From positions 36,689-100,688 of the forward strand of contig CAZVBE010000002.1 of NCBI GenBank assembly GCA_964625335.1: 64,000 nucleotides of DNA. Direction: 5' to 3'. A program made the translations under genes and the position numbers. The notes under the pieces were generated by a model. The model did no database searches and was not told the DNA's origin. It saw only the letters and a list, made by a program, of their open reading frames with translations. Of the stretch, positions 3,639 to 64,000 are shown one piece after another. Numbering within the stretch: the stretch's first letter is position 1; every line of letters starts with the position of its first letter. Origin of the DNA: an uncultured Clostridium sp. Its GTDB lineage: Bacteria; Bacillota; Clostridia; Ch29.

Positions 3639-4685
3639 TTGACAGGCAAAACAAAGAAAATTCTGATTATAATTACAGCATCCTTCCTGGTATTACTGCT
3701 TGGAATGTTTTTTGTTATGAACAGGAATATTATATGGGCTATACTAAAGCCCTTTATCATAGGCGTAACCATTGCCTATTTATTCAACCCTCTTGTTGAA
3801 GCAGCGACAGAAAGGGGCAGCCATAGAATAACAGCTGTTATTCTTGTATATACCGTTGTTTTAGGTTTTGTTGCCGGGACGTCGTACTTTTTTTTGCCCC
3901 AGGTGTACAGGGAAACTTTGAAACTGATGGATATACTGCCGGATTATGCTTTTAAAGCCAAGGATTATCTGGATAATATATATATAAGATTTAGCAAAGC
4001 TCTTACCCCTGAGCTTAAGGAGGCAATCAGGGACAACATTGACGATATCCAGGAGTTAATTATAAATCAGATTAAGAATCTGTCTGAAAAATTCCTGGCT
4101 TTCTTTGGAGGGCTGGTAAATTGGATAATTGCCCTGGTGATTTCATTTTATCTGTTGAAGGATAAAAACTATTTCTTGAATTTGGCCGAGTATATAATAC
4201 CTGTCAGTATGAGACAGGATGCTGCCAGGATAAGCGATGAGATAAACAGCGTGCTTATGAGATTTATACGCGGCCAGCTGCTGGTTTCAATTATAGTAGG
4301 GATTTCGGCCACAATCGGCTTTTTACTTATTGACTTGAACTTTGCAGTATTAATGGGCATAATCACAGGCCTGGGAAACGTTATTCCCTATTTCGGGCCG
4401 GTCTTCGGCGGCATCCCGGTAGCGGTGGTAGGACTTATGGAAAGCCCGACCAAGGCATTATGGGCAGTCATTATAGTGGTAATTGTACAGCAGCTTGAAA
4501 GTGGTATAATAACGCCCAAAATCCTGGGCGACAGCGTTGGGATTCACCCCGTTTTCATAATACTGTCGCTGCTTATCGCGGGTCAGTTTTTCGGATTAAT
4601 AGGACTGTTCTTTGCGGTTCCTGCGGCGGCAATATTAAAGATTTTTGCAGTGTATATTTTCAACAAAATCGTGAATACAACATAA
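3639..4685 (+). CDS. AI-2E family transporter (YtvI/PerM-like permease)
   Basis: 348 aa polytopic membrane protein with the AI-2E signature region GNVIPYFGPVFGGIPVAVVGL. TTG start after GGGAGGA. Confidence 0.75.
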   Translation: MTGKTKKILIIITASFLVLLLGMFFVMNRNIIWAILKPFIIGVTIAYLFNPLVEAATERGSHRITAVILVYTVVLGFVAGTSYFFLPQVYRETLKLMDILPDYAFKAKDYLDNIYIRFSKALTPELKEAIRDNIDDIQELIINQIKNLSEKFLAFFGGLVNWIIALVISFYLLKDKNYFLNLAEYIIPVSMRQDAARISDEINSVLMRFIRGQLLVSIIVGISATIGFLLIDLNFAVLMGIITGLGNVIPYFGPVFGGIPVAVVGLMESPTKALWAVIIVVIVQQLESGIITPKILGDSVGIHPVFIILSLLIAGQFFGLIGLFFAVPAAAILKIFAVYIFNKIVNTT

Positions 4686-4735: not shown

Positions 4736-4985
4736 AAAATTAATAGTTCAGGAAAGACAGTGAAGGGAAGTAGTAATTCGATTCCGTTTCCACAGAAAGA
4801 AAGCCCGCGGCTGAAAGGCTTTTGGAACAGGGCGAATGAAGCAGTCCCGGAGTTGCAGTATCGAAATGAGAGTAGATGCTGCCGGATGTATCCGTTATAT
4901 ATTACAAGAGGCCGTTTTTAGGCAATTAGGGTGGTACCGCGGATTAGTCCCCGTCCCTGACACACGTCAGAGACGGGGTTTTTAT
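4736..4985 (+). promoter_or_regulatory. T-box leader RNA (tRNA-Ala responsive) with terminator
   Basis: Conserved T-box sequence AATTAGGGTGGTACCGCGG at 4924-4942. It is followed by the terminator CCCCGTCCCTGACACACGTCAGAGACGGGG TTTTT (4948-4985). The leader lies upstream of alaS, as in other Firmicutes. Confidence 0.8.
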
Positions 4986-5016
4986 TATCAACGGTGTGTC
5001 CCCCTACCCGAAAGAC

Positions 5017-5035
5017 TATCAATCGGGGACATTCC
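5017..5035 (+). repeat. dispersed short repeat unit TATCAATCGGGGACATTCC (copy A)
   Basis: Near-identical copies at 62009-62035 and 63313-63341. Each is preceded by CCCG-NRAG and flanked by GGTGTGTCCCC/GGGGACATTCC-type inverted units (4987-5003, 5055-5071). Confidence 0.7.
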
Positions 5036-5097
5036 GTAATGAGGAATACCCGAATATCAACGGTGTGTCCCCATACCACTATAGAGGAGGTTATAGA

Positions 5098-7737
5098 ATG
5101 GAACAATTGGGTTTAAATGAAATACGGGAAAGATATCTGAAATTCTTTGAGAGCAAAGAGCATTTGAGACTGCCTAGTTTTCCCCTTGTTCCACAAAACG
5201 ATAAAAGCCTGCTGCTTATTAACAGCGGCATGGCGCCTTTGAAACCGTATTTTACAGGGTCCCAGACACCACCTGCCAACAGGGTGACTACCTGCCAGAA
5301 GTGTATCAGAACCCCGGATATTGAGCGTGTCGGCAAGACAGCGCGGCACGGCACCTTCTTCGAAATGCTGGGTAATTTCTCATTTGGGGATTATTTTAAA
5401 GATGAAGCCATTGCGTGGGCATGGGAGTTTGTTACCGAAGACCTAAAGCTTCCAGAGGACCGGTTATGGATTACCATATATCAGGATGATGACGAGGCCT
5501 TTGATATATGGAATAAATCGATAGGCATACCGGCCGACAGGATAGTGCGAATGGGTAAGGAGGATAATTTCTGGGAAATAGGACTGGGTCCCTGCGGGCC
5601 GTGTTCCGAAATATATTTTGACAGGGGTGAAAAATACGGCTGCGGCAGCGAGGATTGCAAGGTAGGCTGCGACTGTGACAGGTATGTGGAATTCTGGAAC
5701 CTGGTGTTTACACAGTTTGACAGAGATTCGGAAGGCGTATATCACAAATTGGAAAGCCCCAATATTGATACAGGAATGGGCCTGGAAAGAATGGCAGCAA
5801 TAATGCAGGGTGTGGACACCATGTTTGAAGTGGACACCATTGGACATGTCCTTAACTACATTGCCCATATAACCGGTAACAGGTATGGAGAGGATCCGAA
5901 ATCCGATGTATCAATAAGGGTCATTACCGACCATATAAGAGGGGTTACCAACATGATCAGCGACGGAGTACTCCCTTCCAATGAAGGCAGAGGTTATGTA
6001 CTGAGAAGGCTGCTGCGAAGGGCTGCCCGTCACGGAAAGCTGCTTGGTATTGAAGGAAGCTTTTTGTATGACATATCAAGCAAGGTTATAGAGGTGTCCG
6101 GCAAGGCCTATCCGGTGCTGGAGGAAAAAAGGGAATATATACAAAACATTATCAGGCTGGAAGAAGAGAGATTTCAGGAGACTCTGGACCAGGGGTTGTA
6201 TATACTGCAGGAATACATTCTGGAAATACAAAAGGTAAGCGGCAGTATACTGCCCGGGGACAAAGCCTTTAAGCTGTATGATACCTTCGGGTTTCCACTG
6301 GATTTGACCAGAGATATTCTTGAAGATGAGGGCATGACTGTGGATAAGGACGGGTTTGACAAGGCAATGACGGTTCAACGAGACAGAGCAAGAGCTGCCC
6401 GGGCAGAGGCCCAAACTGTGGGATGGAGTGATGAGACATCTTCACAACTGGAGGGGATTGCCGCCACAAGGTTTGAAGGCTATGAGAAATGCAGTAATAA
6501 GACAAGGATTGCGGCGGTATTAAAGGAGAACACCCTGGTGAAAGAGGCAGTTGAAGGAGACCGGGTAGCAGTGGTACTGGATTCTACCCCCTTCTATGCA
6601 GAAAGTGGAGGTCAGGCAGGGGATACGGGAGAAATCAAAGGCGAGACCTTCGTTATAGAGATTAAGGACTGCAAAGCCGTACGGGGAGACATATTTTTGC
6701 ATATAGGCATGGTGAAGACCGGCTCGATAATGCCCGGCATGGAAGCCACTGCAAGCATTGACGTCAGTCAGAGGACCGATGCTGCGCGGAATCACACTGC
6801 CACACACTTGCTGCACAGGGCATTAAGAACTGTGCTGGGTGACCATGTCCAGCAGGCGGGTTCTCTGGTGCAGCCGGACCGACTGCGGTTTGATTTTACA
6901 CACATTTCCCCAATGACAGCCAGGCAGCTGGATGAGGTGGAAAGCATTGTTAACCGGAGGATACTGGACGACCTTGCGGTTGAAACGGTCCAAACCGATA
7001 TGGACAGGGCAAGGGAAATGGGAGCAACGGCTCTTTTCGGTGAAAAGTATGGGGATACTGTCAGGGTGGTAAAAGCCGGCGACTTTTCCATAGAGCTATG
7101 TGGAGGCACGCATGTTAACAGGACTTCAGCCCTTGGAATGTTCGTGCTTGTCGGGGAAAGCGGTATTGCCGCAGGGGTGAGAAGAATAGAGGCTTTGACC
7201 GGAAAAAGAGCTTTTGAGCATATCAAAAACAGGGAAAGGATTTTGATACAGACTGCCCATATACTGAAAACCTCCCCCGATAACTTTGAAGCCAGGATAC
7301 ATGGACTTTTGGAGGAGCTCAAAACAAAGGACAGGGAAATAGGTGCTTTAAGACAAAAACTTGCTGCGCATGAAACCGACAGACTTATTGATGATGCAAG
7401 AGAAATAAAGGGCATAAAGGTGGTTGCAGCCCGGGTGGATAATCTCGATATGAATGCATTGAGGAATTTGGGGGACAGCCTGAGAAACAGGCTGAAATCC
7501 GGAGTGGTGGTATTGGCTTCCAACAAGGATGACAAGATAAATATGGTGGCTATGGCTACCGGGGATGCAGTTTCGGCAGGTGCCCACTCAGGCAGAATTA
7601 TTAAAGAGGTGGCGGCAATTGCCGGGGGCGGCGGTGGAGGAAAACCCGACATAGCCCAGGCCGGAGCAAAGAGGCCTGAAAAAATTCCGGATGCCCTGGA
7701 TAAAGTCTATGCAATCTTACAATCACAGTTGAAATAA
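5098..7737 (+). CDS. alaS: alanine--tRNA ligase
   Basis: 880 aa from ATG 5098 (RBS AGGAGG). Class II aaRS motifs are present, as are the editing-domain HxxxH and the C-terminal DHHA1 GGGGGGK. The ORF-track start at 4996 reads through the leader. Confidence 0.93.
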   Translation: MEQLGLNEIRERYLKFFESKEHLRLPSFPLVPQNDKSLLLINSGMAPLKPYFTGSQTPPANRVTTCQKCIRTPDIERVGKTARHGTFFEMLGNFSFGDYFKDEAIAWAWEFVTEDLKLPEDRLWITIYQDDDEAFDIWNKSIGIPADRIVRMGKEDNFWEIGLGPCGPCSEIYFDRGEKYGCGSEDCKVGCDCDRYVEFWNLVFTQFDRDSEGVYHKLESPNIDTGMGLERMAAIMQGVDTMFEVDTIGHVLNYIAHITGNRYGEDPKSDVSIRVITDHIRGVTNMISDGVLPSNEGRGYVLRRLLRRAARHGKLLGIEGSFLYDISSKVIEVSGKAYPVLEEKREYIQNIIRLEEERFQETLDQGLYILQEYILEIQKVSGSILPGDKAFKLYDTFGFPLDLTRDILEDEGMTVDKDGFDKAMTVQRDRARAARAEAQTVGWSDETSSQLEGIAATRFEGYEKCSNKTRIAAVLKENTLVKEAVEGDRVAVVLDSTPFYAESGGQAGDTGEIKGETFVIEIKDCKAVRGDIFLHIGMVKTGSIMPGMEATASIDVSQRTDAARNHTATHLLHRALRTVLGDHVQQAGSLVQPDRLRFDFTHISPMTARQLDEVESIVNRRILDDLAVETVQTDMDRAREMGATALFGEKYGDTVRVVKAGDFSIELCGGTHVNRTSALGMFVLVGESGIAAGVRRIEALTGKRAFEHIKNRERILIQTAHILKTSPDNFEARIHGLLEELKTKDREIGALRQKLAAHETDRLIDDAREIKGIKVVAARVDNLDMNALRNLGDSLRNRLKSGVVVLASNKDDKINMVAMATGDAVSAGAHSGRIIKEVAAIAGGGGGGKPDIAQAGAKRPEKIPDALDKVYAILQSQLK

Positions 7738-19531: not shown

Positions 19532-19552
19532 GACCAAGGGGACGGTTCTTGT
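19532..19552 (+). repeat. solo REP unit (same family as the RAYT-flanking REPs)
   Basis: CGACCAAGGGGACGGTTCTTG lies directly after the splB stop. It is preceded by a degenerate CGACCAAG tandem (19508-19525). Confidence 0.7.
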
Positions 19553-19596: not shown

Positions 19597-19655
19597 ATAT
19601 TTTATACCTAGAATAGCAAGAAAGAAAAGCGAAAGTGGGATATTTTATAACAGCG
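19597..19655 (+). pseudogene. 5' remnant of a Y1 (RAYT-like) transposase gene
   Basis: 19532-19655 is about 85% identical to 21254-21385 (REP plus the leader and first codons of the transposase at 21329). The ATG is replaced by ATACCTAG, and similarity ends after about 20 codons. Confidence 0.6.
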
Positions 19656-19845
19656 ATTTTGTATGTCTATCAAAACCTGGTAAAGGCCGGCCATGCAAAG
19701 AAGGTATAGGATTGTAAATGAAGAAGCTATAATGAACGTAAAGAAGCTAGATGTCTTGGAGGGGAGCCTTTATTAGATGAAAAGAATGTTAAATAGCAGT
19801 TTACCGCATGGGGATAGATATTCACTGAGATATGATTATTAGAAA

Positions 19846-21234: not shown

Positions 21235-21276
21235 CCAAGGGGACGGTTCTTGTATAACCAAGGGGACGGTTCTTGT
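21230..21276 (+). repeat. REP doublet (direct tandem 2x ATAACCAAGGGGACGGTTCTTGT), left flank of transposase
   Basis: Two 23/24-bp tandem copies. The first overlaps the nitroreductase stop codon. Confidence 0.85.
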
Positions 21277-21328: not shown

Positions 21329-22087
21329 ATGCCAAGAGGAGCAAGAAAGAAAAGCGAAAGCGGGATATATCATATTTTGTTGCGAGGGCAAAACAGGCAG
21401 ATAATTTTCGAAGATGATGAGGATAAAGAAAGGTTTATACAAACATTAAAAGACTGTAAAAACAAAAGCGGATGGAAAATATACGGATATTGCCTAATGG
21501 GAAACCATATTCATTTGTTGCTGCACGAATTTGACGAAGAAACAGGAATAATAATGCGGCGGATTGGCGCGAGTTATGTATACTGGTATAACTGGAAGTA
21601 TAAACGCTGTGGACACTTGTTTCAGGACCGTTATAAAAGTGAAGCGGTTGAAACAGAAAAGTATTTTTTAACAGTCCTTCGATACATACATCAAAACCCG
21701 GTAAAGGCTGGTCACGCAAAGAAGGCCCTGGATTATAAATGGAGCAGCTATAATGAATATATGAATAATAACGGGATAACGGATACCGGCTTTGCACTGG
21801 GCATTTTCAATGAGGACAGGGAAAAGGCGATTCAGAATTTCATAGATTTTCATAATGAACAAAAAGAAGCTAATTGCCTTGAAATGGAAGAGCGCTTCAG
21901 GCTGACAGATGAAGAAGCAATGGCCATCATAAAGGAGGAGTATTGCGTATCCAGTAGTTTGCAGCTAAAGGATTTTGAAAAAAAGAAAAGAGACATATGT
22001 ATAAAAGAGCTAAAAGATAAAGGTCTGTCGACAAGGCAAATAGAGCGGCTGACGGGGATAAGCAGATACATTATTCTGAAAATGTAA
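21329..22087 (+). CDS. Y1/HUH transposase, REP-associated tyrosine transposase-like (IS200/IS605 TnpA superfamily) with C-terminal HTH
   Basis: HuH motif GNHIHLLLHE and a downstream catalytic-Tyr region (DRYKSEAVE). The C-terminal LSTRQIERLTGISRYIILKM looks like an HTH. The gene is flanked by inverted REPs. Confidence 0.75.
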   Translation: MPRGARKKSESGIYHILLRGQNRQIIFEDDEDKERFIQTLKDCKNKSGWKIYGYCLMGNHIHLLLHEFDEETGIIMRRIGASYVYWYNWKYKRCGHLFQDRYKSEAVETEKYFLTVLRYIHQNPVKAGHAKKALDYKWSSYNEYMNNNGITDTGFALGIFNEDREKAIQNFIDFHNEQKEANCLEMEERFRLTDEEAMAIIKEEYCVSSSLQLKDFEKKKRDICIKELKDKGLSTRQIERLTGISRYIILKM

Positions 22088-22139
22088 CCGTAAGAACCGT
22101 CCCCTTGGTTATCAACCGTAAGAACCGTCCCCTTGGTTA
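22088..22139 (+). repeat. REP doublet, right flank (inverted orientation)
   Basis: 2x CCGTAAGAACCGTCCCCTTGGTTA, the reverse complement of the left-flank unit, starting the base after the transposase stop. Confidence 0.85.
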
Positions 22140-23496: not shown

Positions 23497-23504
23497 CCTG
23501 ATAG

Positions 23505-23538
23505 GGCACGGTTCCCTCAGGAACCGTGCCTTTTTTAT
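23505..23538 (+). terminator. intrinsic terminator after the SBP gene
   Basis: GCACGGTTCC-ctcag-GGAACCGTGC then TTTTTT. Confidence 0.7.
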
Positions 23539-25032: not shown

Positions 25033-25116
25033 GCATGAAAAAGGCAAACCTGACGAAAGTCAGGGACGCAAAGCTGCGAGTCTACGGTAATCTTACTACG
25101 ACAGTCGGGCTGCCAT
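25033..25116 (+). promoter_or_regulatory. c-di-GMP-I (GEMM) riboswitch aptamer
   Basis: GGCAAACC-TGAC-GAAA-GTCA-GGGACGCAAAGC..CGGGCTGCC matches the GEMM-I core. That core is GGCAAACC, a P2 stem with GAAA tetraloop, GGGACGCAAAGC, and a 3' G-rich closing strand. Compare the V. cholerae Vc2 segment GGGCAAACCAUUCGAAAGAGUGGGACGCAAAGCC. Confidence 0.75.
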
Positions 25117-25142
25117 AAGACATAATACATTAGTTTATGGCT

Positions 25143-25171: not shown

Positions 25172-25207
25172 ATGTTATTTCCGGACTATATGGAAGGGGA
25201 AAAAATC

Positions 25208-26323
25208 TTGCTACAGTTGGCTAGAACTCTTGTTTTTATGGAAATGCTGTTTATAAATTTGATAACCACGCACCGCTGTTCGCGGACAAGATATTCACAA
25301 AAGAGTATTACAGCAGGATTAATTTTTTATACGGCTTTGGTGATGTTGACTTCTTTTTTAATCAAGCGTAATCTTAGACTGGAGTTTCTTAACGGCAGTA
25401 TAATCATCTTACTGGGATTTACTTATTTTTTTCCATTAAAGTACTTGTATGATGAATCTTCAGGTAAAATTTTGGCTATCATGTTTTTTTCCTGGATTCA
25501 CACAATGGCTGTGACCTCTATATCTATACAGATTTCTATGCTGTTTGAATTGGACAATTATTTTTATCTGGCTCTTATATTACAAACCATAATCTATTTA
25601 GTCAGCACCCGGGCTGTAATACGTTTTGTAAAGAATAAGTTTATACCTATTTTGAAGAACATTCCGAAGGAAATGAACAAACACCTTATCGTACTAAGCC
25701 TGATGGAATTCACGTCTGTGACGATAGTCTATCTATTCTTTAACGAAAACGCAAATCCTTACTGGACAATAATAATAGTGGCACTGATAGCGTCAATAGC
25801 AGCGATAAACTACCATTTAATCTATGTAGTAGTTAAAAACTATAAAAGTATAAGCTTTTTAAAACTGCTTGCTTATTCGGATACTCTAACCGGTATCAAA
25901 AACAGACTGGCACTTTTTCTTGATTGCGATAAACTGATTTCCCAAAATAAGCCCTTCACTTATATATATATGGACCTGGATGATTTCAAAAAAGTAAATG
26001 ATACATACGGTCACTCTGTCGGGGATGATTATCTGAAGCAGTTTACCAAAGCAGCAATAGAAACGATAGGGGATAAAGGAAGCATCTACAGAATGTCAGG
26101 CGATGAATTTGTCTGTATATATAACGAAGACAAAATAGATTTATTACTGGCAACATTTGATGAAAAAGTTATGAACCTGTTTGAAATGAGCGTACCGTTC
26201 TTAGGAGTTAGTATTGGCTATGCAAAGTTTCCTGAAGATGCCGATTCGTTGGATAAACTTGTGAATAAAGCAGATAAAATCATGTATAAAGTCAAAAAAA
26301 CCAATAAACTCAAACCGATTTAG
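25208..26323 (+). CDS. membrane-anchored GGDEF-domain protein with SGDEF variant motif
   Basis: About 6 N-terminal TM helices, then a GGDEF domain whose signature reads RMSGDEFV (SGDEF). The start is uncertain: ATG 25172 has no RBS, TTG 25208 follows GGAAGGGG. Confidence 0.7.
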   Translation: MLQLARTLVFMEMLFINLITTHRCSRTRYSQKSITAGLIFYTALVMLTSFLIKRNLRLEFLNGSIIILLGFTYFFPLKYLYDESSGKILAIMFFSWIHTMAVTSISIQISMLFELDNYFYLALILQTIIYLVSTRAVIRFVKNKFIPILKNIPKEMNKHLIVLSLMEFTSVTIVYLFFNENANPYWTIIIVALIASIAAINYHLIYVVVKNYKSISFLKLLAYSDTLTGIKNRLALFLDCDKLISQNKPFTYIYMDLDDFKKVNDTYGHSVGDDYLKQFTKAAIETIGDKGSIYRMSGDEFVCIYNEDKIDLLLATFDEKVMNLFEMSVPFLGVSIGYAKFPEDADSLDKLVNKADKIMYKVKKTNKLKPI

Positions 26324-60719: not shown

Positions 60720-61916
60720 ATGGCTATTAGTATCAATAAAGACGACTGTATAGGTTGTGGGCTTTGCCTTGACTCCTGCCCCTATCCCGGTGCGGTTGAA
60801 ATTCTGGAGGGCATCGCCGTTATTACGGATAAATGCGTTGAATGCGGCGCATGTGTTGATTCCTGCAATGCCGGAGCCATAGAGTTTGAAGAGGGAAAAA
60901 GAGAAACAGGAATTGACCTGGAGCAGTATAAAGGCGTATGGGTATTTGTTGAACACAGGAAGGACAGGATTGCAAATGTCACGTTGGAACTGCTGGGCGA
61001 AGGCAAAAAACTGGCAGACCAATTGGGGCAGCAGCTGTCAGGCGTTCTGATAGGAGACAACGTGGAAGACCTGGTAAGGGAATGCTTCGCCTATGGAGGC
61101 GATAAGGTTTACCATGTGGATGGGGCGGTATACGGACACTATTCGACCGGACCCTATACAGCAGCCTTTTCACAGCTGATCAAGAAATATAAGCCTAACA
61201 TTGTGCTGTTTGGTGCTACCCATGACGGAAGGGATTTTGCCGCCAGGATTGCAGTCAGAATTTATACAGGTCTTACCGCCGACTGCACAGAGCTAACCAT
61301 AGACCCCGAGACCGGACTGCTCAATCAAACCCGGCCGGCCTTTGGCGGTAATGTCATGGCAACTATTCTGACACCAGAGCACAGGCCGCAGATGGCTACC
61401 GTAAGACCTAATGTAATGAAGAAACCAGAGCCGGACTATGGCAGGACCGGCGAAATAATAAAATTTGACGCTGAAATCACCCGGAAGGATATTTTTTACC
61501 AAATCAAGGAAGTGGTGGAGCATACCGCAAAGACGGTGAACCTTGAAGAGGCAGACATAATAGTTTCGGGAGGCAGGGGGATTGGCGGTCCCGAACATTA
61601 CCATCTTATAGAGGAATTGGCCGAGATTCTGGGCGGTGCCGCCGGCGCATCCCGAGCGGTGGTGGACGCCGGATGGGTGCCTCATTACAGGCAGGTTGGC
61701 CAAACCGGAAAAACAGTAGCCCCCAAGCTATACATAGCCTGCGGGATTTCGGGGGCAATCCAGCACCTTGCAGGAATGCAGACCTCGGATTTTATCGTGG
61801 CTATTAACAAGGACCCGGAGGCCCCGATTTTTAAGGTGGCGAATATAGGGATTTGCGCTGATCTTCATCAGGCTCTGCCTTACCTGAAGGAACGCTTTAA
61901 GGAGCTGCTGGGCTAA
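60720..61916 (+). CDS. etfA: electron transfer flavoprotein alpha subunit with N-terminal 2x[4Fe-4S] ferredoxin domain
   Basis: N-terminal [12 protein letters not shown] and [11 protein letters not shown] motifs precede the EtfA domains, including the C-terminal FAD-binding region. Confidence 0.9.
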
Positions 61917-62008
61917 ACCGGGAACACCCCGGCAATGCGACAGAGGGACGGTTTTAGATTGCCGCGCTGCTGTAACAGCGATGAGTGGTCAGAAGAGAAG
62001 ACGTCCTG

Positions 62009-62035
62009 ACCCGAGAGCTTATCAATCGGGGACAT
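62009..62035 (+). repeat. dispersed short repeat unit (copy B) between etfA and thl
   Basis: CCCGAGAGCTTATCAATCGGGGACATT. Confidence 0.7.
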
Positions 62036-62071
62036 TTTAGAAAGGAGGTGCCCGGATAATCCGGGGAAATT

Positions 62072-63253
62072 ATGAAAAAGTCTGTAATCGTCAGTGCTGT
62101 CAGGACACCGGGAGGTAAATTCGGAGGAAAAATGGCAGGTCTGGAAGCGCCGAAACTGGGTGCACTGGTTGTAAATGAAGCGGTAAAAAGGGCTGGAATA
62201 CCGGCGGAGGCAGTTGATGAGCTTATCTTCGGCTGCGGATGGCAGGCCGGGATTGGTGCCAATGTGGCCAGGATATCCAGTGTAAACGGAGGACTGCCCC
62301 ATGGAACAACCGCCTATACAGTCAACTTAAGGTGCGGCTCCAGCCTTAAGGCAGCAATTATCGGAGCATCTGCAATCATAAGCGGAGATGCGGATGTCTT
62401 GGTTGTAGGCGGGACGGAATCATCTTCCAACGTTCCCTATGTCCTTAAGGATGCCCGCTGGGGGCAAAGGATGGGGGATAAGCAGGTTTATGACGTACTT
62501 CACAAAGATGGTTTTATGTGTCCGCTGGCCGGGATGCTGATGGGGAATACCGCCGAGCTGCTGGTGGATAAATACCAAATATCCAGAGAGGAGCAGGATG
62601 CCTTTGCGGTGGATAGTCACCTCAAAGCCCTTAAGGCTATGGGGGAAGGCAAATTCAAGGAGGAGGCTATGCCGGTTGAAGTAAAGGCTGGAAAGACAAC
62701 CGAGATATTTGATCAGGAGGAGATACCCAGAAGCAACATTTCTTTGGAAAAAATGGCCAAACTCCCGCCGGTCTTCAAAAAGGATGGAACTATTACGGCG
62801 GGCAACAGCTGCGCAATGTGCGATGCGGCATCGGCTATGGTAATGATGTCGCAGGAAAAGGCCGGAGAGCTGGGTATTAAACCTATGGCAGCCATTCGCT
62901 CATACGCAACGGCGGGTGTTGATCCCAAATATATGGGTATAGCTCCGGTGGAGGCTGTCCCGATGGCTTTGAAAAAGGCAGGGATGACCCTTAAGGACAT
63001 CGACCTCATAGAGCTTAATGAAGCCTTCGCCGCACAATATCTGGCGGTGGAGCGGGAGCTGAAATGGGATAGGAGTAAGGTGAATGTTCATGGTGGCGCT
63101 ATCGCCCTTGGTCATCCCGTTGGAGCAACAGGAGCCAAAATACTAACTACGCTTCTCTATGCGCTTAAGACCTATGACAAGCAGGTGGGTATGGCCACCC
63201 TGTGCGTTGGCGGTGGCCAGGGTGTAGCCATTATCGTGGAAAGAGTTAATTAG
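62072..63253 (+). CDS. thl: acetyl-CoA C-acetyltransferase (thiolase II)
   Basis: 393 aa with an active-site Cys in VNLRCGSSLKA, a C-terminal NVHGGAIALGHPVGATG, and a final CVGGGQG. Confidence 0.9.
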   Translation: MKKSVIVSAVRTPGGKFGGKMAGLEAPKLGALVVNEAVKRAGIPAEAVDELIFGCGWQAGIGANVARISSVNGGLPHGTTAYTVNLRCGSSLKAAIIGASAIISGDADVLVVGGTESSSNVPYVLKDARWGQRMGDKQVYDVLHKDGFMCPLAGMLMGNTAELLVDKYQISREEQDAFAVDSHLKALKAMGEGKFKEEAMPVEVKAGKTTEIFDQEEIPRSNISLEKMAKLPPVFKKDGTITAGNSCAMCDAASAMVMMSQEKAGELGIKPMAAIRSYATAGVDPKYMGIAPVEAVPMALKKAGMTLKDIDLIELNEAFAAQYLAVERELKWDRSKVNVHGGAIALGHPVGATGAKILTTLLYALKTYDKQVGMATLCVGGGQGVAIIVERVN

Positions 63254-63312
63254 TTGGCAGTTGGTAGTTGGTATAGCGGCATCCATCATCTGCACTGCGT
63301 AAAGCACGCCGA

Positions 63313-63436
63313 CCCGTAAGGATATCAATCGGGGACATTCCGCAGCAAGGAATTCTAATGGGGACATTCCTTGGCCATAAAGGAATACCAACTATGAAGG
63401 TATGTCCCCTGACCTTATTGAAAGCGGTGTGTCCCC
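63313..63436 (+). repeat. dispersed short repeat cluster (copy C plus GGGGACATTCC / GGTATGTCCCC / GGTGTGTCCCC units) between thl and hbd
   Basis: CCCGTAAGGATATCAATCGGGGACATTCC at 63313-63341. Further units at 63360-63370, 63389-63399 and 63426-63436 in both orientations, each able to form short ATTCC/GGAAT hairpins. Confidence 0.7.
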
Positions 63437-63626
63437 TTTCCGCTAATTGAACTCGATGGCTCCGGGAACTCCGAAAACTCGCCTAACGGCTCAGACACTT
63501 GGAAATTCTACTCCTTCGCCATCTGCGTTCCTTTTAACTTTGCGTGTCAATACTCCGTTTCAGATGATTAGATGCCTTTTGTAAGACAGCTAGCAACTGA
63601 TAATTGTTAATGAGGAGGATGGTAAA

Positions 63627-64000
63627 TGGATATTAAAAAGGGATTAGTTCTGGGTGCCGGGACCATGGGCAGCGGAATTGCCCAGGTTATGGCCCAGAAC
63701 GGTATTGATGCCGTACTTGTAGACGTTAAGCAGGAGATTGTACAGGGAGCATTAAACAAAGTTGAAAATGGGATGATGAGAAGGGTAGAAAAGGGCAAGA
63801 TGACCCGGGAGCAGGTTAGAGATATAATGTCAAGAATTACCGCTTCCACCGATATTGAGGCTGCCGCAGGCTGCGATTTTGTAATTGAAGCGGTGCTCGA
63901 AGACGTAAAGCTCAAGAAGGAGGTATTTTCCAAGCTGGATAAGCTCACCAGGGAAGATGTCATCCTTGCAACCAACACAACTGCATGCTCCATTTCCGAG
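63627..64000 (+). CDS. hbd: 3-hydroxybutyryl-CoA dehydrogenase, N-terminal part (continues past window end)
   Basis: MDIKKGLVLGAGTMGSGIAQV.. Rossmann GxGxxG start typical of Hbd. The ORF is open to the window edge. Confidence 0.8.

Follow-up and report, generated by a model that had tools for sequence, protein, structure and literature searches.

A dispersed family of mosaic hairpin repeats, probably of the REP/BIME type, in uncultured Bacillota

Mosaic repeats of the repetitive extragenic palindrome (REP) and bacterial interspersed mosaic element (BIME) type are best known from Proteobacteria. BIMEs, as reportedly worked out by Gilson, Bachellier and co-workers, are REP-built mosaics of Escherichia coli and other enterobacteria, and the BOX elements of Streptococcus pneumoniae, said to have been treated by Martin et al. 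in 1992 and Croucher et al. in 2011, reportedly have the structure boxA-boxB(n)-boxC. Stabilizing 5′ hairpins and related elements are known from Bacillus (the ermC and aprE leaders; the STAB-SD of cry3A). We analyzed a 64-kb stretch of DNA (the window) from an uncultured Clostridium sp. (assembly GCA_964625335.1, contig CAZVBE010000002.1), which is part of the 111.8-kb Joint Genome Institute (JGI) metagenome contig 3300033162 / Ga0334901_1000152 and carries a palindromic repeat in the leader of alaS and on both sides of the thiolase gene thl. Our analysis indicates with high confidence that these units belong to a dispersed REP/BIME-like repeat family; the fuller reading, that they are mosaic hairpin elements spread at the DNA level and co-transcribed with their neighbors as mRNA hairpins, appears probable.

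The units are built from two 11-nucleotide (nt) arms, L (GGGGACATTCC) and R (GGTGTGTCCCC), which are imperfect inverted copies of one another. A 17-mer that reaches into the L arm, TATCAATCGGGGACATT, occurs exactly three times in the window (5017-5033, 62020-62036, and 63323-63339), each time preceded by CCCG-NNAG-NN; these copies confirm the placement given by the initial annotation of the sequence, which had reported the motif upstream of thl, downstream of it and in the alaS leader. At up to three mismatches there is only one further match, a 3-mismatch one within alaS, against an expectation of 0.22 from dinucleotide-preserving shuffles, and none of 100 shuffles gave four matches. The partner arm GGTRTGTCCCC lies at 4993, 5062, 63399, and 63426, and with one mismatch it has 10 matches in the window versus 1.4 expected. 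The two-mismatch search that the initial annotation had proposed fared differently when run in the window with GGGGACATTCC, returning 22 matches versus 17.7 expected, no excess over chance; the signal in the window consists of exact and near-exact copies plus their fixed arrangement. A covariance model of the repeat unit, built from 26 units, recovered only the three known sites in the window, among them the inner hairpin of the thl-hbd spacer (69.1 bits) and a half unit upstream of thl, with no downstream R arm (62006-62059, 19.2 bits). The thl-hbd spacer holds four arms, L at 63331 and 63360 and R at 63399 and 63426, which form two concentric hairpins, so that units previously described there as alternating in orientation are instead nested, L-L-R-R.

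To define the extent of the family, a genome collection holding one genome per prokaryotic species and a set of metagenomes were each scanned with a single pattern, the exact 17-mer; array copies without an exact 17-mer were recorded only where they lay near an exact copy. The genome scan gave 45 loci, about 32 of which, in seven Bacillota metagenome-assembled genomes (MAGs), carry the extended family context. The carriers are the 'uncultured Clostridium sp.' CAZGUG01, JAENYX01 (a MAG labelled Clostridium thermobutyricum), two Clostridiales MAGs, two Bacillota MAGs, and Peptococcaceae BICA1-7; the remaining loci are isolated chance matches in unrelated phyla. The metagenome scan added 106 further loci, many from the window's own sample series. 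Once identical contexts had been removed, the seven MAGs and the metagenome contigs yielded 69 non-identical arrays, and the motif is thus not confined to three loci but belongs to a dispersed palindromic repeat family, as the initial annotation had supposed. One MAG holds 21 exact 17-mers and another 10, and long contigs carry 2-5 exact 17-mers for every 80-330 kb, a density that points to tens of sites in each genome. Even the 114-nt L-L-R-R composite of the thl-hbd spacer is recurrent, with copies 84-97% identical on at least ten other contigs.

Viral contigs held only chance matches to the 17-mer, and cultured phages and plasmids gave zero BLAST matches to the repeat. Three higher-GC viral contigs of IMG/VR carry an L...R hairpin with exact arms in which the conserved TATCAATC linker is missing (L167 1355-1396, L168 1271-1313, and L169 920-961); L167 and L169 share the same sequence context, and the L168 hairpin stands in reverse orientation directly upstream of a Shine-Dalgarno (SD) sequence and start codon. 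Because of these hairpins, the arms may be more widespread than the full mosaic family. A search for the arm sequences returned only chance primer matches in the searchable literature; the repeat family, previously undescribed, was found in a few related uncultured Bacillota whose metagenomes are of the anaerobic digester type.

The arrays obey a fixed grammar. Exact copies make up 116 of 126 L arms and 88 of 132 R arms, with 34 of the 44 R variants differing at the last base only. Four classes of linker, with sharply modal lengths, join the arms. The R-to-L linker (19-21 nt) is strongly conserved as (T)GACCCGAAAGNNTATCAATC, which is the motif first noticed in the window; the L-to-R linker (25 or 27-28 nt) is variable and falls into three main types, mostly with GGAATACC and in type C with GGCATACC; the L-to-L and R-to-R linkers are 18 nt (GCAGCAAGGAATTCTAAT) and 16 nt (TGACCTTATTGAAAGC) long, respectively. 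A 10-nt tail, WTWCCWYTAA, follows the last R arm. Arrays comprise 2-14 arms, most often LR (n = 16), LRLR (n = 14), and RLR (n = 8), and the largest has 14 arms over 420 nt. The resulting structures are single, tandem or nested hairpins, and the inner units appear to be inserted at the apex of outer hairpins. Other short repeats accompany some arrays: at four loci (L001 2477-2614, L009, L028 3054-3223, and L032 4129-4400) the variable linker after an L arm is replaced by a long hairpin of 100-250 nt, made of ~14-nt tandem repeats (e.g., GGGAGGTGTGAAGT) plus their complement, and runs of CTGTGATCTATGAC-like short repeats come after other arrays (L024, L003, and L037).

The stem formed by an L and an R arm has 12 base pairs, always including one G-U pair, and is always interrupted by an unpaired U-U position. 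In an alignment of 71 distinct units, 99.3% of the cells hold standard pairs, so that the stem-loop conservation put forward at the outset as a check on the family is borne out. The ten outer stem pairs, the G-U pair among them, are invariant or nearly invariant in sequence; the two innermost show covariation from one linker subtype to another (GC 36 versus UA 33; CG 42 versus UA 24). None of 500 shuffles matched the observed covariation score, the percentage paired, or the number of cells changed on both sides; since the covariation tracks few subfamilies, it represents few independent events. A single unit has a predicted folding energy of -24 kcal/mol and the nested unit of the window one of -45 kcal/mol (z about -2.5), and the opposite strand folds about equally well because the arrays are palindromic. 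A terminator scan of the window found no intrinsic terminator at the units, whose WTWCCWYTAA tails have no T runs.

None of the 35 arrays checked lies inside a long open reading frame (ORF). The genes downstream include trxB-like, PNP, mogA, ptb, fba, tsaE, murC, dinB, pyrG, and kamA genes, together with alaS and thl. Pfam annotation of ten of them gave functionally unrelated products (a thioredoxin-reductase-like oxidoreductase, purine nucleoside phosphorylase, MogA, phosphate butyryl/acetyl-transferase, class II aldolase, TsaE, MurC, DinB, CTP synthase, and lysine 2,3-aminomutase), to which the window adds AlaRS and thiolase, and some arrays occupy 23S-5S spacers. In the rRNA operon of one such spacer array, at L018, a group II intron D1-D4 domain (4219-4391, 155 bits) lies ~130 nt downstream of the 5S rRNA gene. 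A promoter scan detected no promoter-like site at the window units. Rfam, applied to the whole window at gathering thresholds, reported only a T-box and a c-di-GMP-I-GGC riboswitch, and for 61900-63640 at E up to 10 only chance matches to small nucleolar and long noncoding RNAs. A riboswitch-type leader is excluded by the unrelated downstream genes, the lack of an Rfam match and the arrays in 23S-5S spacers.

Array orientation follows the neighboring gene. Judged against the gene or rRNA that lies downstream, ~43 arrays run sense and 17 run antisense, counts that are approximate since they derive from crude six-frame gene calls, with five strands corrected from SD and start-codon evidence and JGI calls; five of the antisense arrays are rRNA-spacer arrays, antisense to the rRNA, and four lie in convergent regions, where they are sense to the upstream gene. 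The + strand of the window has a strongly positive GC skew, and all three sites are + oriented. Over the 69 arrays, the GC skew of the flanks in array orientation, taken as a proxy for replication direction, is positive in 35 and negative in 34, and orientation is therefore independent of skew. A replication-strand cause of the bias was rejected on this split.

The relation to the translation start is closer still. In 29 of the 69 arrays (~40%), an SD sequence, a start codon and a long ORF follow within 45 nt on the same strand; the mirror-image arrangement was found in 8 of 69, about half of them with doubtful ORFs, and with orthologous sites collapsed to distinct genes the comparison stands at roughly 21 versus 3. 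In 22 of the 29, 21-27 nt separate the end of the R arm from the start codon, so the 10-nt tail touches the SD sequence. Between the array and the stop codon upstream of it the spacing is loose (-5 to 55 nt), and the tight spacing is thus specific to the 3′ side. Seven arrays that abut an SD sequence are sense to their gene even though the skew around them is negative or near zero. In the alaS leader of the window, the tail (ATACCACTAT) stands 2 nt from the SD sequence (AGGAGG, 5085-5090; ATG at 5098).

Syntenic loci of relatives, 75-80% identical to the window, show that arrays have been gained, lost, multiplied and remodelled. In the window, the thl-hbd spacer measures 372 nt and holds the L-L-R-R array; at L019, the locus of a relative, it is 55 nt long and repeat-free. 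The etfA-thl spacer has a half unit in the window and two full tandem units at L019. Among five relatives, the array ahead of the trxB-like gene takes the form of a solo L, LR, LRLR or LLR, and at the mogA site one relative has a type A and another a type B linker.

Retained copies can be strictly conserved. The order T-box, terminator, array, SD sequence is common to the alaS leaders of three species, in which the conserved linker and L arm are identical at 30 of 30 positions and the R arm at 10-11 of 11; the segment from T-box to terminator is 80-86% identical and the variable linker 29-65%. Orthologous copies share a linker dinucleotide (AC at alaS, CT at thl), which argues, from these two sites only, for vertical inheritance under constraint over repeated re-insertion.

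The features of the three sites are collected in Table 1. To the left of the half unit upstream of thl stands a degenerate R-like GACGTCC (62000-62006); to its right come TTAGAA and the SD sequence of thl (62043-62048). This SD sequence (AGGAGG) stands 23 nt before the ATG at 62072, with a hairpin, CCCGG-ATAAT-CCGGG (62051-62065), between them that is kept at L019 with another loop (CCCGG-ACGAA-CCGGG); the hairpin may bring the SD sequence near the start codon, or the annotated thl start may be wrong. Around the thl-hbd array, GGCATCCATCATCTG (63278-63292) pairs with CAGATGATTAGATGCC (63561-63576) in the envelope listed in Table 1 (fold -114 kcal/mol, z -2.3), and an TTGGCAGTTGGTAGTTGG stretch is paired with sequence immediately preceding the ribosome-binding site of hbd (63254-63292, 63561-63605). 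The left part of the envelope recurs at L003 and L038 and TAGTTGGTAGTTGG-like runs recur at L020 and L028, so the envelope may be a second repeat family. Elsewhere in the window, the c-di-GMP-I-GGC riboswitch aptamer (25034-25118, 75.5 bits) lies directly upstream of a gene for a GGDEF-domain protein (25172-26323).

Table 1. Repeat units and associated features at the three sites of the window
Feature	Position	Strand	Site or remark
T-box of alaS leader	4751-4961		Rfam match
R arm GGTGTGTCCCC, opening the R-L-R array just past the T-box terminator	4993-5003	+	alaS leader
Conserved R-to-L linker CTACCCGAAAGACTATCAATC, holding CCCG-NNAG-NN-TATCAATC	5004-5024	+	alaS leader
L arm GGGGACATTCC	5025-5035	+	alaS leader
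Variable L-to-R linker, type A-like, with conserved GGAATACC	5036-5061	+	alaS leader
R arm (5062-5072) and 10-nt tail ATACCACTAT	5062-5082	+	alaS leader
Half unit: linker TGACCCGAGAGCTTATCAATC and truncated L arm GGGGACATT (62028-62036)	62007-62036	+	upstream of thl
Larger inverted-repeat envelope around the L-L-R-R array	63278-63576	+	in thl-hbd spacer 63254-63625
Linker-type left flank GACCCGTAAGGATATCAATC	63311-63330	+	thl-hbd array
Outer L arm	63331-63341	+	thl-hbd array
18-nt L-to-L linker GCAGCAAGGAATTCTAAT, the family's commonest	63342-63359	+	thl-hbd array
Inner hairpin: L arm (63360-63370), 28-nt type-B linker, R arm GGTATGTCCCC (63399-63409)	63360-63409	+	thl-hbd array
16-nt R-to-R linker TGACCTTATTGAAAGC, the family's commonest	63410-63425	+	thl-hbd array
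Outer R arm (63426-63436) and tail TTTCCGCTAA	63426-63446	+	thl-hbd array

The initial annotation had linked the units to a transposase of the REP-associated tyrosine transposase (RAYT) type encoded elsewhere in the window, and the GGGGAC core that it saw in the repeats beside that gene is indeed common to both families, the L arm GGGGACATTCC and GGGGACGGTTC matching at 8 of 11 positions. On this basis the units would be REPs, or REPINs (hairpins formed by inverted REP doublets), of a RAYT-like protein that recognizes the shared core and moves both families. The ORF at 21329-22087 does have a Y1_Tnp domain (IS200-like, RAYT-type), and its homologs are in some sources named 'REP element-mobilizing transposase RayT'; GGGGACGGTTC repeats occur on 13 of the loci examined, so the two families coexist in these organisms, and a conserved imperfection is common to the L/R stem and to REP hairpins. 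The gene is, however, flanked by a different repeat, with two inverted AACCAAGGGGACGGTTCTTG copies on each side (21237-21272; 22094-22134), and mobilization of the L/R family is left unsupported; a solitary copy of this other repeat (19536-19548) adjoins the remnant of a second Y1 gene (19641-19736). Homologs 63-71% identical occur in four distinct contexts, three of them flanked by GGGGACGGTTC-core repeats (L155; L157/L158, the same place on two contigs; L162) and the fourth (L160) by none, and L or R arms flank neither the window gene nor any of these four. A tblastn search of the fetched loci with the Y1 protein returned only the window copy and the remnant at 19641-19736, and no Y1 homolog lies within 1.29 Mb of loci, most of them centered on 17-mer matches. 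The two designs are also opposite, the GGGGACGGTTC family having a conserved loop and variable, covarying stems and the L/R family conserved stems and variable loops. We consider movement by this transposase unlikely; cross-recognition of the L/R arms, which the 8 shared positions make conceivable, would be only a lead. A terminator-like palindrome after a solute-binding protein gene, AGGGCACGGTTCCCTCAGGAACCGTGCCTTTTTT (23502-23533), differs from the RAYT repeat core by two mismatches and may be a derived copy or a coincidence.

Three further explanations concern what the arrays do rather than how they move. That the motif is the operator of a transcription factor whose regulon includes thl/hbd and alaS is suggested by its conservation, its partly palindromic form and its position upstream of genes, and the initial annotation had allowed for a regulator binding site. 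A regulon box was rejected because the downstream genes are unrelated and arrays also lie in 23S-5S spacers; units past a T-box terminator, between cistrons and in convergent regions are likewise not at promoters, and a range from half a unit to 14 arms per site would be foreign to an operator, which makes this explanation highly improbable. A more serious contender is that the arrays are chiefly a cis-acting RNA module, read at the linker and L arm by a dedicated RNA-binding protein or ribonuclease, with the repeat behavior secondary. Its attractions are a 30-nt linker and L arm held more strictly than the neighboring T-box in three species, arm sequences conserved beyond what pairing alone requires, a G-U pair tolerated on the sense strand only, a fixed spacing to the SD sequence, and an orientation that tracks the gene over GC skew. 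Multiplication to as many as 14 arms, linker swapping and presence/absence differences are nevertheless typical of repeat elements and unlike regulatory leaders; the neighboring genes have no common function, about a quarter of the arrays are antisense, Rfam gives no match, and the effect on SD accessibility is not significant (p = 0.06). We therefore regard this explanation as doubtful. The arrays might, at the other extreme, be neutral, decaying remnants of a selfish hairpin, placed and oriented wherever insertions are tolerated and without effect on the host. Degenerate or truncated copies (e.g., 62007-62036, L003, L024, and L035) and ragged left boundaries would fit; identity at 30 of 30 positions across species whose coding DNA is 75-80% identical misfits neutral decay, as does a tight 3′ distance to the SD sequence combined with a loose 5′ distance to the stop codon, and we rate this possibility too as improbable.

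The reading we prefer, REP/BIME-like elements carried along in mRNA, would run as follows. The units would have arisen and spread as non-autonomous DNA hairpin elements of the REP/REPIN kind, and the arrays would expand, contract and swap linkers through recombination between copies. Since they occupy 5′ untranslated regions (UTRs) and intercistronic spacers that show no promoter or terminator features, they would be transcribed together with their neighbors: the etfA-thl and thl-hbd units as intercistronic hairpins of one beta-oxidation operon, and the alaS unit as a hairpin that follows the T-box terminator and precedes the ribosome-binding site. In Bacillota, mRNA decay proceeds largely 5′ to 3′, and a stable hairpin directly upstream of a ribosome-binding site is known to protect the message downstream; hairpins after a cistron block 3′ exonucleases. 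The array hairpins might accordingly guard the cistrons beside them against exonucleases, or they might insulate the ribosome-binding site. Such a role at the RNA level is possible, if short of an even chance, and would account for the bias toward sense orientation, the placement against SD sequences and the conservation of retained copies. The earlier proposal of transcript-stabilizing hairpins in the etfBA-thl-hbd operon thus agrees with the gene-oriented bias, with the intercistronic and 5′-UTR positions and with the lack of promoter- or terminator-like sites at the window units. In a folding test of SD exposure, the mean predicted unpaired probability of the SD sequence was only weakly higher than with shuffled upstream sequence (0.43 versus 0.34; 17 of 26, p = 0.06).

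Several points weigh against the preferred reading. Sense orientation is not obligatory, since the 23S-5S arrays and some 10 other sites run antisense to the transcript around them, and co-transcription with the neighbors is deduced from position. Strict conservation could come from gene conversion among copies, although the shared dinucleotides at alaS and thl speak against this. Occupied and empty thl-hbd sites are ~77% identical, too diverged to reveal junctions or a target-site duplication, and mobility is consequently read only from presence/absence and remodelling; no transposase linked to the L/R family was found at the loci examined. The loci were ascertained through the exact 17-mer, many of them from one metagenome series, and since orthologous sites from related strains were counted too, the counts are not independent.

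The family extends the same mosaic logic to uncultured Bacillota, with two unusual traits, the orientation of arrays with the neighboring gene over GC skew and the tail that commonly touches the SD sequence. A 30-nt module held more strictly than a nearby riboswitch offers a test case for distinguishing repeats that are tolerated from repeats that are used as mRNA hairpins. For the window itself, the arrays account for the long structured spacers of the etfBA-thl-hbd operon, and they should be masked in regulatory-motif searches of these genomes. A more speculative idea, to which we attach a low probability, is that the 30-nt linker and L arm are the site of a dedicated protein acting on RNA or single-stranded DNA and that the arrays are a domesticated, portable 5′-UTR and intercistronic module. 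If so, a mobile repeat family would have been turned into a genome-wide layer of post-transcriptional control in these syntrophic Clostridia, with a module at the ribosome-binding sites of dozens of unrelated housekeeping genes setting processing, stability or translation.

Among known systems, the 5′ stabilizers of Bacillus are proposed as a functional analogy only: they too place a stable structure just upstream of the ribosome-binding site in hosts with 5′-to-3′ mRNA decay, but they are single gene-specific leaders, whereas the L/R arrays are a dispersed family. Enterobacterial BIMEs would be the closest architectural analog. Both are extragenic mosaics, single or tandem, of two inverted short imperfect palindrome arms and a few linkers of fixed length (here, two arms, four linker classes and 2-14 arms per array), and BIMEs are transcribed within operons and able to act as mRNA-stabilizing hairpins. 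The L/R arrays differ in belonging to Bacillota, in their unrelated sequence, in lacking a GTAG tag, and in the frequency of nested L-L-R-R units; they mostly precede a gene, with the tail abutting the SD sequence, whereas enterobacterial REPs typically follow stop codons. By inspection, the arms are also unlike what we take to be the enterobacterial REP consensus. As for miniature inverted-repeat transposable elements (MITEs), inverted arms are present, and no parent element with a transposase was found among the 1.29 Mb of loci.

The REPIN-RAYT system (Bertels and Rainey, PMC3116915; Nunvar and co-workers) probably offers the closest mechanistic model, apart from its defining association with a transposase. 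Here as there, an imperfect palindrome forms a hairpin, inverted doublets form a larger one, tens of dispersed extragenic copies occur per genome and persist for long with vertical inheritance at orthologous sites, and a RAYT gene is present in the same genome; the gene in the window is flanked by the GGGGACGGTTC-core family, and no Y1 gene flanked by L/R arms was found. Di Nocera et al. (2013; PMC3733652) distinguished GTAG- and CGTC-tagged REP super-families, the CGTC class having no dedicated transposase and a tag that is sometimes TGTC; the tag in their survey is an unpaired terminal motif beside stems of 8-9 base pairs with loops of 4-5 nt. The main text of that survey does not contain the words Firmicutes or Clostridi, and the five phyla it gives for CGTC repeats exclude them. 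The L/R arms resemble these repeats in being short palindromes, often in dimers, that contain TGTC; they differ in that TGTC lies inside the stem and is not unpaired, no GTAG stands beside the arms, and the loops are 19-28 nt long. In lineage and behavior, the closest counterpart would be the pneumococcal BOX element. Both are small modular repeats of Firmicutes with a variable number of internal modules and stable RNA folds, BOX elements often lie in 5′ gene regions and are co-transcribed, and neither has a known mobilizing enzyme; the L/R family differs in its unrelated sequence, in its lineage, and in a logic built on two inverted arms and four linkers.

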